Positions 3,870 through 33,150 of a stretch of 41,346 nucleotides of DNA are shown one piece after another (the stretch's first letter is position 1; every line of letters starts with the position of its first letter). The notes beneath the pieces are model-generated. The model was not told the origin of the DNA and did not search any database. It saw only the letters and a list, made by a program, of their open reading frames with translations. The translations under genes were made by a program, and so were the position numbers. The stretch lies in the UHGV virus genome UHGV-0007810, one strand, 5' to 3'. Source of the stretch: a virus.

Positions 3870-4687
3870 ACGTACATATCCTGTTTACGTGCCCAGTCAG
3901 GGCGTTTAATAATTTCCACTCCGCCCCACTCATCGTTGATGCGGCATTCGTGATAGGTATTCAGATCCCGGCGGAACAGAGCGTGCCCGGCATCGACATC
4001 CGGCGCATCCAGCTCGAACACGCGTACCGGATATCGACCACAATCAATGCTTTCGCTCACGGCAAGAAAGAAAAAACCATGCGGCTGACCAGTAACCCTC
4101 ATTGCGCCTTCGCGGTACATTGCGTCCTGCACGTGGTAGCGGAATTCCTCGATGTGGCGTGCAAAACGGTCCATATCTGCAACCTTTTTCACGTCGACGA
4201 TCACGTTGTGCTCGTTCAGCCATTTGTCTGGACGAATGCGGCACAACTCACCAGTATCTTCATCGTTCCAGTACATTGATGCTTCGCAGTAACCAGGTGC
4301 TTCCAGCATCCAGCGTGCCGCCGGGTGAGCCATTGCGCTATCACGCATCAGCTCCAGTTTCCGCCACTGCTCGGCATCAAGTACCGTAATCCCCATATCC
4401 GCCACATCACGAAGAAATGCCTCTTCGTCAGCTTTACCTTGTTTCGTCCGACGATCGAATTTCGGTGAAACAATGAAGCGTTTGTCGAACTCTCCAGGCT
4501 CCAGAAGCAGACAGTGCAATGCGGTTCCCATATCCAGTGCAGACTTTTTCTCTTCGTCTTCTGGTGCTGCCTGAACCCATTTAAGAAGCGCCGGATTCTT
4601 GGCAACCATGTCCAGTTGCGACTTACTCACGCCGTCACCGGCGTGGTAGTCTTCGTTGCTGATGTCGAAATAAATTCCCGGTTTCAT
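3866..4687 (-). CDS. RecE-like exonuclease (PD-(D/E)XK nuclease domain)
   Basis: 273 aa; N-terminal YFDISNEDYHA motif and overall pattern resemble the exonuclease VIII / YqaJ-type nuclease domain; paired with RecT. Confidence 0.65.
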   Translation of the reverse strand: MKPGIYFDISNEDYHAGDGVSKSQLDMVAKNPALLKWVQAAPEDEEKKSALDMGTALHCLLLEPGEFDKRFIVSPKFDRRTKQGKADEEAFLRDVADMGITVLDAEQWRKLELMRDSAMAHPAARWMLEAPGYCEASMYWNDEDTGELCRIRPDKWLNEHNVIVDVKKVADMDRFARHIEEFRYHVQDAMYREGAMRVTGQPHGFFFLAVSESIDCGRYPVRVFELDAPDVDAGHALFRRDLNTYHECRINDEWGGVEIIKRPDWARKQDMYV

Positions 4688-4983
4688 GCCGCGTCCCTCT
4701 GTCCATCAAGCTGATCCGCCAGATCCCAGCGCGCTATAATTGCCATTGCCTCTCGCCGATAGGCATCCATCAGTTCTTCGAACTCAGGGCTGTCTTTAGC
4801 AGCCTCCAGCACTTCCTGACGAACGCCTTTGCCTGTTACAACGTCGAAAGTTGAGGACAGTTGATGAAGTCGGATGCTCTCAATCAGTTCAACTTGTCGG
4901 TCATATAGCTGTTCTGACAGGCGGTAGTCCTTGTCGAATGCCAGCATGATTTTTTGAAGATTTTTCTGCTGATTAACGTTCAT
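4684..4983 (-). CDS. Hypothetical protein (about 99 aa from the second ATG)
   Basis: ORF-track ORF 4684..4998; the second ATG at 4983 is preceded by GGAGGG and is the likelier start. Confidence 0.5.
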   Translation of the reverse strand: MNVNQQKNLQKIMLAFDKDYRLSEQLYDRQVELIESIRLHQLSSTFDVVTGKGVRQEVLEAAKDSPEFEELMDAYRREAMAIIARWDLADQLDGQRDAA

Positions 4984-11350: not shown

Positions 11351-11944
11351 ATGCCTGCTGAACCTAAAACCTATAAACGTAAATCAACGCAATTTAAGCC
11401 ACTAACAGCAATGCAGGAGGCTTATTGCCAGTCATACATCAAAACGCCTGAAAACCAGACTCAGGCAGCGATTAACGCAGGATTCTCCCCAAATACAGCG
11501 GCAGTTAAAGCCAGTGTCATGATGCGCGATGAACGCATTCAAAAACGGATTGCCGAGCTGATGGAAGAGCGCAACAAACGAATGCGTGTCAGTGCTGATT
11601 ACGTTCTCATGCGCCTGGTGGAGATCGACCAGATGGACGTGATTGATATCCTCAACGATGATGGGGGCCTTAAGCCAATCCGCGAGTGGCCGAAAATCTG
11701 GCGCACTACGCTTAGCGGCTTTGATCTGTCATCGACCATCATGAACATGAACGAGGATTCGATAGAGACAATCCTCAAAAAAATTAAATGGCCTGACAAG
11801 GTGAAGAACCTTGAGCTGATTGGTAAGCACGTCGATGTCAATGCATTCAAAGAACGCCTGGATGTTAATGTGAATGTGACAATTGCTGATCGCATAGCGG
11901 CAGCCAGGAAGAGACTGAAAGAACGTCAGGATGGCAATCAGTGA
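11351..11944 (+). CDS. Terminase small subunit
   Basis: About 197 aa from ATG 11351 (the ORF-track extension covers a terminator and operator); HTH-containing N-terminus (TAMQEAYCQSYIKTPENQTQAAINAGFS) typical of small terminases; precedes the large subunit. Confidence 0.7.
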   Translation: MPAEPKTYKRKSTQFKPLTAMQEAYCQSYIKTPENQTQAAINAGFSPNTAAVKASVMMRDERIQKRIAELMEERNKRMRVSADYVLMRLVEIDQMDVIDILNDDGGLKPIREWPKIWRTTLSGFDLSSTIMNMNEDSIETILKKIKWPDKVKNLELIGKHVDVNAFKERLDVNVNVTIADRIAAARKRLKERQDGNQ

Positions 11945-13416
11945 CAGATGCAGCGTTATCTCCTGAAGAGCAGTTGATCGAGGATATTGCAGGGTTCACT
12001 CACGATCCGCTTGGCTATGCCCTCTATGCGTTCCCGTGGGGGGAAGATGGGACTGAACTGGCACATGCCACCGGTCCACGTCAGTGGCAGGCTGATGCGT
12101 TCCGAGAGATACGTGATCACCTGCAGAATCCAGAGACTCGCTATCAGCCGCTTATGCTGGCACGTGCTTCGGGTCACGGTATTGGTAAATCCGCATTCAT
12201 CTCAATGCTGATCAACTGGGGCATGTCCACTTGCGAGGATTGTAAGGTTGTGGTGACCGCCAACACCGACAACCAGCTTCGAACGAAGACCTGGCCGGAA
12301 ATTATCAAGTGGTCGAACCTTGCTATCACGAAAGACTGGTTTACCTGTACCGCTACCGCGATGTACAGCAATGATCCTGGACACGACAAGCGGTGGCGAG
12401 CTGACGCAATCCCCTGGTCTGAGCACAACACTGAGGCATTCGCCGGACTACACAACGAGCGCAAACGCATCATTGTGGTATTCGATGAAGCGTCGAACAT
12501 TGCGGATCTGGTGTGGGAAGTTGCCGAGGGTGCGCTAACGGACGAAGACACTGAGATTATCTGGGTGGCGTTCGGAAACCCTACACGTAATACCGGGCGT
12601 TTTCGCGAATGTTTCCGCAAATACAAACACCGCTGGAAAACTGCGCAGATTGACAGCCGGACGGTGGAAGGTACTAACAAACAGCAGTTGCAGAAATGGG
12701 TTGATGACTACGGGGAAGACAGCGACTTCGTTAAAATCCGTGTGCGCGGCATATTTCCTGATGCATCTGAATTGCAGTTTATCCCTACCGGCCTTACTGA
12801 CGAGGCAATGAAACGGGTGGTAACCGCTGCGCAGGTTGCACATGCTCCGGTGATAATCGGCGTTGACCCGGCATACTCCGGCGTTGATGACGCTGTGATA
12901 TACCTGCGGCAGGGGCTGCACAGTAAGGTGCTGTGGACTGGCAACAAGACCACTGACGATCTGATTATGGCGAAGCGTATCGCTGACTTTGAAGACCAGT
13001 ACCAGGCTGACGCAGTGTTCATCGACTTCGGTTACGGAACTGGTCTGAAGTCAATCGGTGATGGCTGGGGTCGTACATGGCAACTTGTTCCGTTCGGTGG
13101 CGCGTCTACTGACCCGCAGATGCTCAACAAGCGTGGGGAGATGTTCAACTCATGCAAGACATGGCTGAGGCTGGGCGGCATGCTGGATGACCAGGAAACA
13201 GCGGACGACCTGTCTGCGGCAGAGTACAAAGTTCGAGTGGACGGTAAAATCGTTATCGAACCGAAGGAAGATATCAAGGAGCGGCTTGGGCGTTCTCCTG
13301 GTAAAGGCGATGCGCTACTGCTGACGTTTGCGTTCCCTGTGTCGAAGCGTCTGCGAATTCTAGGTCAGCAGAACCAGCAAGGAAAGGCCATTACAGATTA
13401 CGATCCCTATGCTTAA
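11941..13416 (+). CDS. Terminase large subunit
   Basis: 491 aa; P-loop ARASGHGIGKS, Walker B-like VVFDEAS, C-terminal nuclease-like region; GTG start overlapping the small-subunit stop. Confidence 0.85.
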   Translation: MTDAALSPEEQLIEDIAGFTHDPLGYALYAFPWGEDGTELAHATGPRQWQADAFREIRDHLQNPETRYQPLMLARASGHGIGKSAFISMLINWGMSTCEDCKVVVTANTDNQLRTKTWPEIIKWSNLAITKDWFTCTATAMYSNDPGHDKRWRADAIPWSEHNTEAFAGLHNERKRIIVVFDEASNIADLVWEVAEGALTDEDTEIIWVAFGNPTRNTGRFRECFRKYKHRWKTAQIDSRTVEGTNKQQLQKWVDDYGEDSDFVKIRVRGIFPDASELQFIPTGLTDEAMKRVVTAAQVAHAPVIIGVDPAYSGVDDAVIYLRQGLHSKVLWTGNKTTDDLIMAKRIADFEDQYQADAVFIDFGYGTGLKSIGDGWGRTWQLVPFGGASTDPQMLNKRGEMFNSCKTWLRLGGMLDDQETADDLSAAEYKVRVDGKIVIEPKEDIKERLGRSPGKGDALLLTFAFPVSKRLRILGQQNQQGKAITDYDPYA

Positions 13417-13466
13417 TCCGCTGGTGGGGATAATGTCGTTGATATCCTCTGGTGAGGATAAAACAA

Positions 13467-13486
13467 AGCCAGCTCATAGGCTGGCT
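13467..13486. terminator. Bidirectional terminator-like hairpin after the large terminase
   Basis: AGCCAGC-TCATAG-GCTGGCT with an A-run upstream and T-rich downstream. Confidence 0.5.
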
Positions 13487-13490
13487 GTTT

Positions 13491-13502
13491 GTGACATGTC
13501 AC
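13491..13502. repeat. Perfect 12-bp palindrome GTGACATGTCAC (copy 2 of 3)
   Basis: Exact; directly abuts the hairpin at 13467-13486. Confidence 0.8.
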
Positions 13503-13506
13503 GGTG

Positions 13507-13878
13507 TTATTGCTCGCTTAACTTCTGCTTCAGCAAGTAACCTTCAAGCATCCAGATTTTGTTTACAGCATTCTGCCGGGCAATCTTCCGACCAATTTCT
13601 GCATCAAAGTTTTCCGGGCTTGCACAGGCGCTCTCTCCGGTGACGGTGAAGCCGTTGCGCAGCACCAGGACGCAGAACGTCAGCAGAGAAAGTGATTCGT
13701 GCGGCTGGTAGTTTACATATCCGCCAGTATGTTTCGCTTTTATGGCTTTGCCAAAGGCACCATCCTCTGCTGTGAAATATGCCTCCTGAGCAATAATGCT
13801 TTCGATATGGTCTGGCGTAACGCGCGGAGCAGTTTTGCCTTTCTCAACGATTTCTTTTTCGATTTGCTGGTCGTTCAT
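13507..13878 (-). CDS. Hypothetical phage protein (possibly Sf6 gp66 / N4 gp49-like family)
   Basis: 123 aa; AAGGTGA Shine-Dalgarno; central GFTVTGESACASPENFDAEIGRKIA resembles that family as recalled. Confidence 0.55.
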   Translation of the reverse strand: MNDQQIEKEIVEKGKTAPRVTPDHIESIIAQEAYFTAEDGAFGKAIKAKHTGGYVNYQPHESLSLLTFCVLVLRNGFTVTGESACASPENFDAEIGRKIARQNAVNKIWMLEGYLLKQKLSEQ

Positions 13879-13889
13879 AATCTCACCTT

Positions 13890-13913
13890 AAAAAAATGCC
13901 CGGCGAACCGGGC
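13890..13913 (-). terminator. Rho-independent terminator downstream of the tRNA, abutting the next ribosome-binding site
   Basis: GCCCGG-CGAA-CCGGGC with a 7-nt A-run on the + strand (T-run on the - strand). Confidence 0.6.
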
Positions 13914-14076
13914 GAACTGGAAGCAATGAGTTATGCCTTCCGTGGCTGTACTGGTTTACAGCATGAAGTCATCGTAATGGCGTCCTGCTGTAAAAAGGGC
14001 GGTGATAGTCCTTCAAGGGAAACCATCACCGCCAAGCACCTGGAACTTCTGGCATCACGGTCCTTAAGCGTGATTC

Positions 14077-14153
14077 TGGCGTGGCATGCAGGATTCGAAC
14101 CTGCGACCAACCGCTTAGAAGGCGGTTGCTCTGTCCAACTGAGCTAATGCCAC
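14077..14153 (-). tRNA. tRNA-Arg (anticodon UCU)
   Basis: Reverse complement folds as a cloverleaf: acceptor GTGGCAT/ATGCCAC, D-stem GCTC/GAGC, anticodon stem ACCGC/GCGGT with loop CTTCTAA (anticodon TCT), T-arm GCAGG-TTCGAAT-CCTGC, discriminator G and CCA. Confidence 0.9.
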
Positions 14154-14475
14154 AACGCTGAGAGCACTTAGCCTGTTAAGTCGCCACACTTTGTCGCGGC
14201 TCCATAAATGCTCTCAGCGTTGTACCCTCGTCTCTTCCGAGGCGTCACACCGAATCGCCGGGATGGTGAATTCCCGTGCGCGGAATAAAACCGCTCGACT
14301 TGCACATTCCGGCTACCTGGTTCGTTTGCCCGAGCAAGGGAGGGTGCCCCTTAAACGTATCCAGACCGCTATCGGCGCATGTGCCATACGCCGTACTGCT
14401 CAAAATAAAAGCTCACTCCACCTGTTCAATTTAACGACAAGCCAGTCAGGTTAGTAACCGGAATGAACTCTTTGG

Positions 14476-14490
14476 TTACCTGAAAGGTAA
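14476..14490. promoter_or_regulatory. Operator-like palindrome TTACCTGAAAGGTAA
   Basis: Exact; about 90 nt upstream of the small ORF that precedes the portal gene. Confidence 0.55.
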
Positions 14491-14580
14491 TAATTCGCGC
14501 GTTAAATGTCAACTGTCTACGATAAATAAATCATATGTGGTTAAATTGGTAATAATTTAATTGCGTACGGAGTCATTGAT

Positions 14581-14787
14581 ATGTGCATGGGTAGCTCACC
14601 ATCAGTGCCTGCAACACCAGAAGTTCAGGCAGCACCACAGGAGCAGGATGCCGCCGTTGTTGATGCCCGCGACGAAGAAACTCGTCGCCGTCGCGCTGCT
14701 GCTGGTCGTAGTTCTACGCTGCTTACCGGTTCTCAGGGCGACACATCAACTGCTAATACCAGCGGTAAAACGCTACTTGGTCAGTAA
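14581..14787 (+). CDS. Hypothetical small protein (68 aa), low complexity
   Basis: Shares the initiation context CGGAGTCATTGA-(A/T)-ATG with the portal gene 220 bp downstream; coding status uncertain. Confidence 0.35.
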   Translation: MCMGSSPSVPATPEVQAAPQEQDAAVVDARDEETRRRRAAAGRSSTLLTGSQGDTSTANTSGKTLLGQ

Positions 14788-14801: not shown

Positions 14802-16481
14802 ATGGCGGAAACAACTAAAGAGCGATTGAACAAACAGTTCGCACAACTTGAAAGCGAGCGTCAGTCGTTCGAGCCGCACTGGCGCGAGTTGAGTGATTAC
14901 ATCAACCCGCGTGGTTCCCGCTTTCTGACTTCTGAGGTCAACCGTAACGATCGACGCAATACACGCATTATTGATTCGACCGGGACTATGGCGGCGCGCA
15001 CTCTCGCCAGCGGCATGATGTCAGGCATCACAAGCCCCGCGCGTCCGTGGTTTCGCCTGGCTACGCCAGATCCTGAAATGATGGATTATGGCCCTGTTAA
15101 GTTGTGGCTTGAGGCGGTGCAGAACCGCATGAACGATATGTTCAATAAGTCGAATCTCTATCAGTCGCTGCCGCAGTTATACGGAAGCCTCGGCACATAC
15201 AGCACTGGTGCAATGGCAGTGCTGGAGGATGACGAGGACATCATTCGCACAATGCCATTCCCGATAGGCAGTTACTACCTGGCTAACTCACCTCGTGGCA
15301 GTGTGGACACCTGTTTTCGCAAGTTCTCTATGACTGTTCGTCAGCTTGTTCAGGAGTTCGGGCTAAATAACGTCAGCGAATCCGTAAAAAGCATGTGGGA
15401 AAGCGGCACCTACGAGAAGTGGATTGAAGTGATGCATTCGGTTTACCCGAACATTGACCGCGATACATCGAAGCTGGATAGCAAGAACAAGCCATTCAAA
15501 TCGGTTTATTACGAGGTTGGTGGCGATAACGACAAGTTGTTGCGTGAGTCCGGATTCGATGAGTTTCCAATTATGGCCCCGCGCTGGGAAGTTAACGGCG
15601 AAGATGTTTATGGATCATCATGCCCGGGTATGCTGGCGCTTGGACCTGTTAAGGCATTGCAGCTTCTCCAGAAGCGCAAGTCGCAGTTGATTGATAAAGC
15701 CACCAATCCGCCGATGGTTGCTCCGACTTCCCTCAAGAATCAGCGTGCCTCCCTTCTTCCTGGCGACATCACGTATATCGATCAGATTACTGGTCAGGAT
15801 GGTTTCAGGCCTGCTTATCTGGTTAACCCCAGTACAGCAGATTTGGTGGCAGACATTCAGGACACTCGTCAAATCATTAACAGCGCCTACTTTGTCGATC
15901 TGTTCATGATGTTGCAGAACATCAATACCCGCTCGATGCCTGTGGAAGCGGTGATCGAAATGAAAGAAGAAAAACTTCTGATGTTGGGGCCGGTTCTGGA
16001 GCGCCTGAACGACGAATGTCTTAATCCTCTCATTGATCGCTCTTTCTCGATGATGGTGCGTAAAAACATGCTGCCGCCACCGCCTGACGCGATGGAAGGC
16101 ATGCCCCTGAAGGTCGAATACATTTCCGTCATGGCTCAGGCGCAGAAGTCTATCGGCCTGTCCAGTCTGGCGTCCACGGTTAACTTCATTGGTCAACTTG
16201 CGCAAGCGAAACCAGAAGCTCTCGACAAACTCAACGTTGATCAGGCGATCGATGCATTCGCTGATATGTCCGGAGTGTCTCCAACCGTCATTGTTCCGCA
16301 GGAACAGGTTGAGCAGGCTCGCCAGCAACGGGCACAGCAACAACAGCAGCAACAAATGATGGCGATGGGGATGGCGGCGGCACAGGGTGCCAAGACGCTA
16401 AGTGAAGCTAAAACTTCGGATCCGAGTGTTTTGTCAGCTATGGCGAATGTAGTTAGTGGTCAGGGTGGGCAATCACAATGA
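14802..16481 (+). CDS. Portal protein (podovirus head-tail connector type)
   Basis: 559 aa; position after the terminases; Q/A/M-rich flexible C-terminus (QQQQQQQMMAMGMAAAQGA) like T7 gp8 as recalled. Confidence 0.8.
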   Translation: MAETTKERLNKQFAQLESERQSFEPHWRELSDYINPRGSRFLTSEVNRNDRRNTRIIDSTGTMAARTLASGMMSGITSPARPWFRLATPDPEMMDYGPVKLWLEAVQNRMNDMFNKSNLYQSLPQLYGSLGTYSTGAMAVLEDDEDIIRTMPFPIGSYYLANSPRGSVDTCFRKFSMTVRQLVQEFGLNNVSESVKSMWESGTYEKWIEVMHSVYPNIDRDTSKLDSKNKPFKSVYYEVGGDNDKLLRESGFDEFPIMAPRWEVNGEDVYGSSCPGMLALGPVKALQLLQKRKSQLIDKATNPPMVAPTSLKNQRASLLPGDITYIDQITGQDGFRPAYLVNPSTADLVADIQDTRQIINSAYFVDLFMMLQNINTRSMPVEAVIEMKEEKLLMLGPVLERLNDECLNPLIDRSFSMMVRKNMLPPPPDAMEGMPLKVEYISVMAQAQKSIGLSSLASTVNFIGQLAQAKPEALDKLNVDQAIDAFADMSGVSPTVIVPQEQVEQARQQRAQQQQQQQMMAMGMAAAQGAKTLSEAKTSDPSVLSAMANVVSGQGGQSQ

Positions 16482-32185: not shown

Positions 32186-32881
32186 TCAGAAGAACCCTGC
32201 CTTGTCGTTGATGTACTCCGCGTGCGTCTGGATATCACGCAGGCATTTGCTCACACCGACGATGTAGCAGAACATGGTGGTCAGCTCCGCCGCCGCGCCC
32301 GATACGTCGTGCCCGTCGTCCTGTAACTGGTTCAGCAGATTCATCAGCAGTGAGTTCTCCGTCAGGCCGAGAACACCAGACGGCGAATGAATCAGGCTGC
32401 GGTAGCCGGGCTTCAGTGGGGCACTGTAGGTTTTGTTCTCTATCTTCATCGCCTGCATCACTGCTGATGCTGTGGCGTTGGCTACCTGGTCGGCAACCAT
32501 CTTTATGCGCTCTTCCTGCGGGAGCGAGTTTTTAATGTAACTTCCGGTGCGGCGGATCTGAGGAAGAACCTCACCTGTAACCCATTTACGAAAGCGGTAT
32601 GGGATAGTGCCTGGTGTCACTGCGTCGCGGCAGCGGAGGATCAGTGTGTAGAGGCCTGACTCGGAGATGATGATCGATTCTTGCTCACCGCCAGGGGTGT
32701 CGGTTGAAGCGACGCCCTTCTCATCATCATCAAGTTTTCGAACAGCATCTCGATGGTTTGCTATGCCTATAGCCCGACAAACATCTGAAGCGATAAACCA
32801 TGGCTCACCATTAATGACGATTACTCGTATATCGGCTTGGGATTCGAAAGAAAAAATGGACGTGCTTTTTGTAGCTGTCAT
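32186..32881 (-). CDS. Bro-N domain protein (antirepressor-like), C-terminal domain paralogous to 34029..34286
   Basis: 231 aa; N-terminal FESQADIRVIVINGEPWFIASDVCRAIGIANHRDAVRKL is a classic Bro-N signature; C-terminal ~70 aa align with the small LexA-box gene product. Confidence 0.75.
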   Translation of the reverse strand: MTATKSTSIFSFESQADIRVIVINGEPWFIASDVCRAIGIANHRDAVRKLDDDEKGVASTDTPGGEQESIIISESGLYTLILRCRDAVTPGTIPYRFRKWVTGEVLPQIRRTGSYIKNSLPQEERIKMVADQVANATASAVMQAMKIENKTYSAPLKPGYRSLIHSPSGVLGLTENSLLMNLLNQLQDDGHDVSGAAAELTTMFCYIVGVSKCLRDIQTHAEYINDKAGFF

Positions 32882-33150
32882 AGTGGTTACCTTTTAGTCA
32901 GGTTAATCACCACTACCGACGCCAATCGGTTGGTGGTGAACTGTGCAGGGTTGGCGTAACCGGCTAAAAGGACCCGGCGCACCTTTCGGTGCCCCCACAC
33001 AGCCCACCATAATACGAATGTGGCCGTGCTATACGCATAAAAAAACCGCTTGCGCGGTGAATGCGCCTTTTAGTAATCCGGGACGCCAATCCCGGCACTG
33101 GATTTTGCCAGTGCCCGATTACTATGGCACAAGAGGAGTGCAATGTAAAT

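Follow-up and report, generated by a model that had tools for sequence, protein, structure and literature searches.

What is the conserved DNA that precedes the single transfer RNA (tRNA) gene of the virus genome UHGV-0007810? The stretch analysed, a DNA of 41,346 nucleotides (nt) that is called the window throughout, is assigned to a Uetakevirus (phiV10/epsilon15-like), as a phage genome or prophage, because the 1.4 kb around the locus are 95.7% identical to Escherichia phage phiV10 and to the O157 typing phages 9 and 10. An earlier note, made from the letters alone, had placed a tRNA-Arg(UCU) on the minus strand between the terminase and portal genes. ARAGORN and Rfam agree on this assignment, with a score of 73.3 bits against a gathering score of 29 for the Rfam tRNA family, and ARAGORN predicts no other tRNA in the window. 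For the DNA upstream of the tRNA, comparative analysis gives good support to a widespread, unannotated structured RNA that is fused to the tRNA. Its components are as follows.

14396-14477, minus strand: lineage-specific 5′ leader, not conserved outside the Uetakeviruses in the conservation profile
14154-14395, minus strand: structured RNA of ~242 nt (about 245) with six helices and a pseudoknot, defined by covariation
14393-14386 with 14380-14373, minus strand: helix P1
14369-14361 with 14320-14312, minus strand: helix P2, which encloses a variable hairpin
14317-14299, minus strand: near-invariant single-stranded 19-mer GGUAGCCGGAAUGUGCAAG
14294-14280, minus strand: helix P3, a variable hairpin
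14276-14272 with 14263-14259, minus strand: helix P4
14268-14265 (CACC, loop of P4) with 14251-14248 (GGUG), minus strand: H-type pseudoknot
14242-14238 with 14230-14226, minus strand: helix P5, with the loop GAAGAGA
14222-14209 with 14166-14153, minus strand: helix P6, the inverted repeat of the earlier note, 14 bp, closing a variable insert
14077-14153, minus strand: tRNA-Arg(UCU), anticodon tct, with an encoded CCA (ARAGORN; Rfam RF00005)

Conservation begins at approximately 14396 and stops at the 5′ end of the tRNA, the 80 nt upstream being lineage-specific. The minus strand of 14154-14500 has a folding z-score of −4.35 relative to shuffled sequences, and RNAalifold, applied to 37 representatives, returns three helices with compensatory changes. 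A curated model comprising helices P1, P2, P4 and P5 and the pseudoknot was evaluated on a MAFFT alignment of 38 representatives of less than 94% identity. Pairing is satisfied in 94.8% of the cells, compared with 27-47% after shifting the 3′ partners by 1-3 columns; changes on both sides occur in 13 of the 28 pairs, and none of 500 shuffles attains the observed values. Covarying positions are found in helix P1 (GC in 20 and AU in 17 sequences), P2 (CG 27, UA 11), P4 (AU 24, UG 9, CG 4), P5 (CG 24, GC 9) and the pseudoknot (CG 34, AU 4). In the full-length alignment seven pairs of P6 covary, as does the pseudoknot. The 11-bp inverted repeat that had been described as bracketing the tRNA is therefore real, and extends to 14 bp, but it belongs to the upstream RNA as its closing helix P6.

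A covariance model of the element (R1) scores 134.8 bits in the window, at 14223-14395 on the minus strand, and picks it up in 91 further loci with scores of 124-165 bits; the R1-fitted alignment of 77 distinct sequences gives the same covariation statistics. Conserved G-U pairs point to the minus strand, that of the tRNA, as the functional one. The 19-mer GGUAGCCGGAAUGUGCAAG is intact in 145 of 150 loci that were retrieved through an independent anchor, and the remainder carry single substitutions. RNAalifold also proposes a long-range pairing of GCACAU with AUGUGC, which competes with helix P1; since both of its sides are invariant it can be neither supported nor rejected by covariation, whereas helix P1 itself covaries. 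On this comparative evidence, 14154-14395 of the minus strand is a covariation-supported structured RNA, as the earlier note had considered possible. The same note had called the roughly 230 bp upstream of the tRNA GC-rich, which holds only mildly (GC content of 0.56, against 0.44-0.55 nearby), and without a convincing open reading frame (ORF), which is borne out. No conserved ORF is present on either strand: homologue lengths divide equally among the three mod-3 classes, and in some members, that of phage P1 among them, every one of the six frames is interrupted by stops. On these two grounds a protein-coding role was rejected for both strands.

It is thus extremely unlikely that the tRNA is an ordinary moron whose upstream 240 nt are a precursor leader or recombination debris, perhaps with a small ORF on the opposite strand. 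GenBank coding sequences (CDSs) are annotated over the element (mEp460_037 and an Ayreon ORF) and beside it (cdtI orf40), and the tRNA would plausibly be useful by itself, with AGA and AGG at 5.6 and 4.1 per 1000 codons in the 33 long ORFs of the window. This is approximately three times the average of E. coli, and we infer that the tRNA-Arg serves the raised usage of these codons. Against an ordinary moron stand the 13 compensatory pairs, the G-U pairs that mark the tRNA strand as functional, insertions and deletions that are not multiples of three, six-frame stops in some members, and conservation of the RNA where no tRNA is present. Database CDSs over these RNAs that are likely to be spurious include PhiV10p04 (antisense to the tRNA; 13896-14147 of the window, plus strand), mEp460_037 and cdtI orf40; UTI89_C5094 is named as a similar protein in a note of the mEp460 record.

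The junction between the RNA and the tRNA is constant. In the window the first base of the tRNA is the last base of the 3′ strand of P6, and in 25 distinct homologues the tRNA-Arg starts 1 nt after that strand. Relatives devoid of a tRNA carry a tRNA-shaped domain at exactly the same position. It is enclosed by the stem GUGGUG/CACCAC, three bases inside which the first hairpin begins; the middle is hypervariable, and the last hairpin abuts the closing stem. The pairing of the domain holds in 99.5% of the cells, compared with 27-58% after sliding, with three compensatory pairs among 12 sequences; one member has the canonical T-loop UUCGACU. RNase P recognizes the shape formed by an acceptor stem and a T-arm, and the acceptor-like closing stem with a hairpin abutting its 3′ strand is predicted to have the shape of an RNase P substrate. 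We infer that RNase P cleavage at the P6/tRNA junction would mature the tRNA and set the 3′ end of the structured RNA. In one relative (L014) the tRNA-like domain folds as a full cloverleaf with the anticodon-like loop CUUUUAA, which is that of tRNA-Lys(UUU); this tRNA is attacked by PARIS and by anticodon nucleases such as PrrC. The domain could be a decayed tRNA or a decoy. Downstream of the tRNA, and likewise of the tRNA-like domain, two further features follow.

14054-14074, minus strand: trailer hairpin AUCACG-CUUAAGGAC-CGUGAU, conserved, also in tRNA-less homologues
13990-14033, minus strand: intrinsic terminator T1, a 14-bp stem GGCGGUGAUGG...CUAUCACCGCC followed by CUUUUUAC (hairpin and U-run scan)

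The T1 hairpin lies at 14033-13998, just 44 nt past the tRNA. Its outer stem GGCGGU/ACCGCC and its U-run are conserved, and its inner pairs vary among lineages. T1 had been overlooked in the earlier note.

The element is far from confined to the window. A sensitive blastn search with 14154-14580 returned 88 phage records, comprising Uetakeviruses from E. coli, Salmonella, Klebsiella and Enterobacter and lambdoid phages (cdtI, mEp460, Ayreon, 2H10, and Shiga toxin 2c (Stx2c)- and Stx2a-converting phages) that match at about 80% identity over 14154-14394 only. An exact search with the 19-mer found it in at least 120 IMG/VR contigs and 24 species-representative Enterobacterales genomes. Altogether 114 distinct versions were collected, 36-99% identical to the window. 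Among complete E. coli genomes the element is present in 1839 of 5426, roughly a third, with 551 places on plasmids. The contexts of 155 loci include 54 of Uetakevirus, 75 of lambdoid and 19 of P1-like type. Of 93 sources, 91 have a single copy at each locus; the only multi-copy locus among the 93 is the IMG/VR contig L025, in which tandem copies at 3997-4154 and 4804-4959 lie on the same (minus) strand, approximately 650 nt apart, and score 125 and 159 bits.

In all 75 lambdoid loci a cI-like gene is located 430-1900 nt upstream on the same strand, and the interval between cI and the element holds a terminator, operator repeats and a strong leftward pL-like promoter. The cI proteins span a range of 31-99% identity and the downstream gene sets differ, being either yfdP-yfdQ-yfdR through xis-int or a different set, with the integrase at the far end of the operon. 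By annotation and ORF inspection, no N gene is annotated or evident in the lambdoid contexts examined. In phage P1 an unannotated core (helices P1 to P5) is found in the 286-bp gap that separates trnI from ban (AF234172, 71009-71294; L158, 3510-3795), within the C1-repressed ban operon and with a tRNA-Ile 12 nt upstream. This core is 100% identical to that of P1-like plasmids, and its P6 is replaced by sequence that enters the Shine-Dalgarno (SD) sequence of a 14-codon ORF overlapping the start of ban. The epsilon15 copy is a truncated remnant of 40 bits, consisting of helix P1 and half of P2 (L004, 2634-2723); it has lost two-thirds of the element, from the 3′ side, together with the tRNA and T1, and retains the promoter, helix P1, a second terminator (T2, below) and a gp49-like gene. 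The epsilon15 record labels the region of the remnant hairpin an RNase III site. In the CPS-53 prophage of E. coli K-12 (L131, 7247-7605) yfdP-yfdT are kept and the cI-pL-element region is replaced by unrelated repetitive sequence; transcript maps of K-12 are therefore uninformative about the structured RNA. Terminator-like hairpins within about 500 nt downstream are present in the sense direction in 77 of 125 sequences, compared with 30 of 125 antisense. By sequence comparison, the cassette of structured RNA, tRNA or tRNA-like domain, hairpin and terminator is common to lambdoid prophages and its core is shared by phage P1, so that the arrangement, which had been described as unusual, is not peculiar to this phage.

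A tRNA scan and covariance-model search, suggested in the earlier note, recovered the tRNA, and no further family was found in 13300-14700: an Rfam 15 cmscan with E-values up to 10 gave only the tRNA and chance-level hits there, and nothing on the lambdoid copy. In the same search the element matched no riboswitch, T-box, GOLLD, ROOL, isrK, C4 or Y RNA model. It is unannotated in all GenBank and RefSeq records inspected, and no description of it was found in the full-text literature searched by conserved strings, phiV10/epsilon15, yfdP/yfdQ or P1 ban/trnI. It thus appears to represent an undescribed structured RNA family, absent from Rfam.

Expression of the element would start from a promoter that carries a repressor-type site.

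14484-14519, minus strand: predicted sigma-70-like leftward promoter (consensus scan), with −35 TTGACA at 14512-14507, a 17-nt spacer and −10 TACCTT at 14489-14484
14475-14491: operator-like palindrome GTTACCTGAAAGGTAAT, overlapping the −10 element and start of the leftward promoter

The promoter can also be read in an alternative register, TAGACA-18-AATTAT at 14519-14490, and the inferred start lies at about 14477-14483; TTGACA-17-TACCTT is conserved in an alignment with epsilon15 and SPN9TCW. The palindrome ATTACC-N5-GGTAAT, with up to two mismatches, has 15 occurrences in the window, where 1.07 would be expected, and none of 100 shuffles reaches 15. This is an approximately 14-fold over-representation; the sites are mostly intergenic and often paired, and include 5157/5219, 8262/8324, 11315/11333, 14475, 33150/33243 and 34362. 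The set presumably constitutes the operators of the phage repressor, controlling many promoters, among them those before terS. In epsilon15 the record marks the counterpart of the site at 14475 as one bound by a repressor, and the lambdoid pL and P1 ban contexts are likewise repressor-controlled. Because the operator overlaps the −10 element, the locus is better described as an early lytic unit, which is probably not expressed in lysogens and comes on soon after derepression, than as a tRNA moron, the term of the earlier note, expressed in lysogeny.

Beyond T1 the leftward transcript would meet a second terminator before the only ORF.

13914-13989, minus strand: inter-terminator segment, conserved in Uetakeviruses, with a small hairpin GGAAG...CUUCC at 13941-13919
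13913-13890, minus strand: intrinsic terminator T2, GCCCGGTTCGCCGGGC (GCCCGG-UUCG-CCGGGC), then A and seven U
13507-13889, minus strand: SD sequence AAGGUGAG and a gene for a 123-amino-acid protein of the N4 Gp49 / Sf6 gp66 family (Pfam)

The earlier note had described a strong terminator about 165 nt past the 3′ end of the tRNA and abutting the next ribosome-binding site (RBS). This terminator, T2, starts 164 nt downstream, and its U-run directly joins the SD sequence AAGGUGAG (13889-13882) of the ATG at 13878. In epsilon15 the stem of T2 is GCCCAC/GUGGGC, a compensatory change. T1 and T2 are both predicted intrinsic terminators, each a GC-rich hairpin followed by a U-run, in which changes of the stem between lineages keep the pairing. 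The gene at 13507-13878, whose product matches Phage_gp49_66 (PF13876; E = 2.1e-35, 121.5 bits, cutoff 27), had been thought to be expressed by read-through or from a promoter overlapping the terminator. The first of these routes stands: a promoter scan and inspection by eye revealed no convincing sigma-70 promoter between T1 and T2, so that the gp49-like gene would be reachable only by read-through. The inter-terminator hairpin, immediately before T2, has the shape of the 3′ end of a small RNA, and no promoter was found for the segment. A RyhB-like match at 13890-13944 was dismissed at 18 bits against a gathering score of 55, as it reflects merely the shape of a hairpin and a terminator.

A structured leader followed by a terminator raises the possibility of a cis-acting riboswitch or attenuator, in which binding of a ligand or protein would decide the use of T1 or, in phage P1, of the RBS of ban. 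The conserved unpaired nucleotides and the pseudoknot are aptamer-like, a terminator does follow the element, and in phage P1 the sequence that replaces P6 can, judged by eye, form a partial pairing with the SD sequence of the small ORF that precedes ban. However, P6 and T1 are separated by about 120-125 nt that include a complete tRNA, and an overlapping expression platform is thereby precluded; moreover, the regulated genes are unrelated across contexts, and no riboswitch or T-box model matches at E-values up to 10. Given the distance of the terminator and the unrelated cargo genes, a classical riboswitch is improbable.

Still less probable is a leader RNA that promotes termination, like the P4 CI RNA; after RNase P processing it would pair with the nascent leader, enforce termination at T1 and so keep the operon shut. 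The leader position after an early promoter, the probable RNase P site and the following terminator would suit it, as would the complementarity of GGCACAU in helix P1 to AUGUGC in the 19-mer. However, these phages have protein repressors and operators, the complementary pair lies within one element and is invariant, and thus untestable by covariation, and no repeated target sites occur downstream.

The reading that we prefer, though with somewhat less than even confidence, is that the RNA released by RNase P makes the polymerase resistant to terminators. The tRNA would then be the 3′ module of a non-coding cassette. After derepression the leftward promoter would transcribe a leader of about 85 nt, the structured RNA (14395-14154), the tRNA-Arg, the trailer hairpin and T1, followed by a short conserved segment, T2 and the gp49-like gene. 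A cut by RNase P at the junction would mature the tRNA and at the same time give the structured RNA a defined 3′ end. The structured RNA would remain on, or act on, the transcribing polymerase and render it resistant to termination, by the logic of the HK022 put RNAs but performed by an unrelated, larger RNA. Polymerase would in this way pass T1 and T2 to reach the gp49-like gene, and in the lambdoid phages would proceed to yfdPQR and through to xis-int. An effect on termination would have to act at a distance, since a whole tRNA separates the RNA from T1.

Read-through is favoured because the lambdoid phages appear to lack N yet must reach xis-int, and in lambdoids without an annotated N the element is always first behind the early promoter. 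In the window both T1 and T2 precede the only ORF, and across the homologues terminator-like hairpins follow the element more often on the sense than on the antisense strand. The near-invariance of the single-stranded 19-mer also speaks for this reading. The placement of the element is also that of put, after an early promoter and before terminators in a phage with no annotated N. Rfam has no put model, and putL and putR of HK022 were extracted for comparison. Membership of the put family was rejected: R1, run with filters off, gives no match in the pL-putL and pR-putR regions of HK022, and comparison of the element with putL and putR by eye reveals scattered identities only. No second copy of the element was found in the right-operon flanks (about 3 kb) of mEp460, Ayreon and cdtI.

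Several observations weigh against terminator resistance. T1 is conserved together with the RNA, as would be expected of the plain end of an RNA gene. In phage P1 the core lies 2.3 kb from Pban and directly before the RBS of ban, is followed by no P6, tRNA-like domain or T1, and has the only strong terminator of the ban operon (dicF-like) upstream of it. Epsilon15 retains T2 and the gp49-like gene despite its truncated copy. To these are added the lack of a second copy in the available right-operon flanks and of similarity to putL or putR, and the size of the element, about three times that of put. Finally, the tciA-trnI-ban-dbn region of phage P1 is non-essential in a knock-down by CRISPR interference (PMC10695390).

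The absence of a terminator after the phage P1 copy, the epsilon15 stump and the missing right-operon copy would favour a stand-alone, stable phage RNA with T1 as its own terminator, freed by tRNA-processing enzymes and acting in trans. Such an RNA could be a decoy or a component of a ribonucleoprotein directed at a host or phage target, the downstream genes being expressed only by leak-through. T1 and the trailer hairpin accompany the RNA, and a tRNA or tRNA-like flank on the 3′ side (Uetakeviruses and lambdoids) or the 5′ side (phage P1) would give it discrete ends. The cassette occurs in three unrelated phage types with unrelated neighbours, one contig holds two tandem copies, and the phage P1 region is dispensable in the laboratory, as is usual for accessory functions. 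Precedents exist in GOLLD and ROOL, near phage tRNAs, and in the species 1 and 2 RNAs of T4. This explanation fails, however, to account for the constant first position after pL in 75 lambdoid loci with differing repressors and cargo, or for how xis-int is reached past T1, and no target can be named. We consider it the main alternative, tentative and only a little less probable than terminator read-through.

Should the released RNA indeed confer resistance to terminators, the element may, as a tentative proposal, constitute a processive antiterminator of a new, RNA-only class, or some other RNA directed at RNA polymerase, and in either case one unrelated to put. It is conceivable, with similar reserve, that this class explains how the early-left operons of lambdoids that apparently lack N are transcribed past their terminators. 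No more firmly, we suggest that it is matured by a built-in RNase P site provided by the tRNA or tRNA mimic, and that phage P1 carries an unnoticed copy before ban.

The surroundings of the locus in the window are as follows.

11941-13416, plus strand: large terminase gene
13467-13486: shared hairpin terminator for the converging terL and gp49-like transcripts (hairpin scan; marked as a terminator in phiV10)
14802-16481, plus strand: portal gene (PF12236)

The leftward island is thus flanked by terS and terL on the plus strand and, on its other side, by a gp3 homologue and the portal gene, also on the plus strand. Elsewhere in the window, a C4 antisense RNA (32929-33014, 77.7 bits) and an isrK RNA (33039-33114, 77.9 bits), both on the minus strand and above the Rfam gathering scores, are located just upstream of a minus-strand ORF of 231 amino acids (32186-32881) and beside the operator palindromes at 33150 and 33243. 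The region 32929-33114 looks like an antirepressor control module of the P1 immI type.

The element is very common, occurring in complete E. coli genomes, several Enterobacterales genera, Stx-converting phages and the textbook phage P1, and spurious protein genes have been entered over it in several databases. In phiV10-type phages the tRNA 'moron' is to be read as part of a larger RNA unit. If the RNA acts by modifying RNA polymerase, just one other antitermination system made of RNA alone would be known in phages, and the element would answer how lambdoids apparently without N run their early-left operons; if it is free-standing, it would join the small group of ornate phage RNAs of open function.

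Among these ornate RNAs are GOLLD and ROOL, covariation-supported prophage RNAs whose function is open, which are often found beside tRNA genes and for which Rfam models exist. They are two to three times the size of the element, belong to Firmicutes and environmental phages, and give no cmscan match here; to our knowledge, they are not leaders of repressor-controlled operons. The P4 CI RNA and the P1/P7 C4 RNA are excised with the aid of RNase P from the untranslated start of an early operon. Unlike the element, they are antisense RNAs of approximately 70-80 nt with defined target repeats, and the genuine C4 RNA of the window (32929-33014) is unrelated to it. In MALAT1-mascRNA a downstream tRNA-like structure lets RNase P form the 3′ end of the neighbouring non-coding RNA, and species 1 and 2 of T4 are stable RNAs of open function that are co-transcribed with phage tRNAs; the likeness of both to the element is one of logic only, with no relation in sequence or structure. 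The ileZ-argN-argO genes of Stx phages are phage tRNA morons, and resemble the present case in supplying a rare-codon tRNA-Arg in a temperate coliphage that uses AGA and AGG above the host average. In contrast to them, the tRNA here is joined directly to the base of a conserved structured RNA, and in relatives a tRNA-shaped domain takes its place. The closest parallel in position is with putL and putR of HK022 and put of HK639, which, like the element, are untranslated RNAs just past pL in lambdoid phages without N (apparently without it, for the element), with terminators next. RNAs of the HK022 put type make RNA polymerase terminator-resistant by way of its beta′ zinc-binding domain. The put RNA acts at a distance without a transcript tether (PMC9378689), and tether-independent action at a distance would be needed of the element too. 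The HK022 put RNA, however, measures about 70 nt, has two stem-loops and is present in both early operons, whereas the element is a single left-side copy of about 242 nt with six helices and a pseudoknot.

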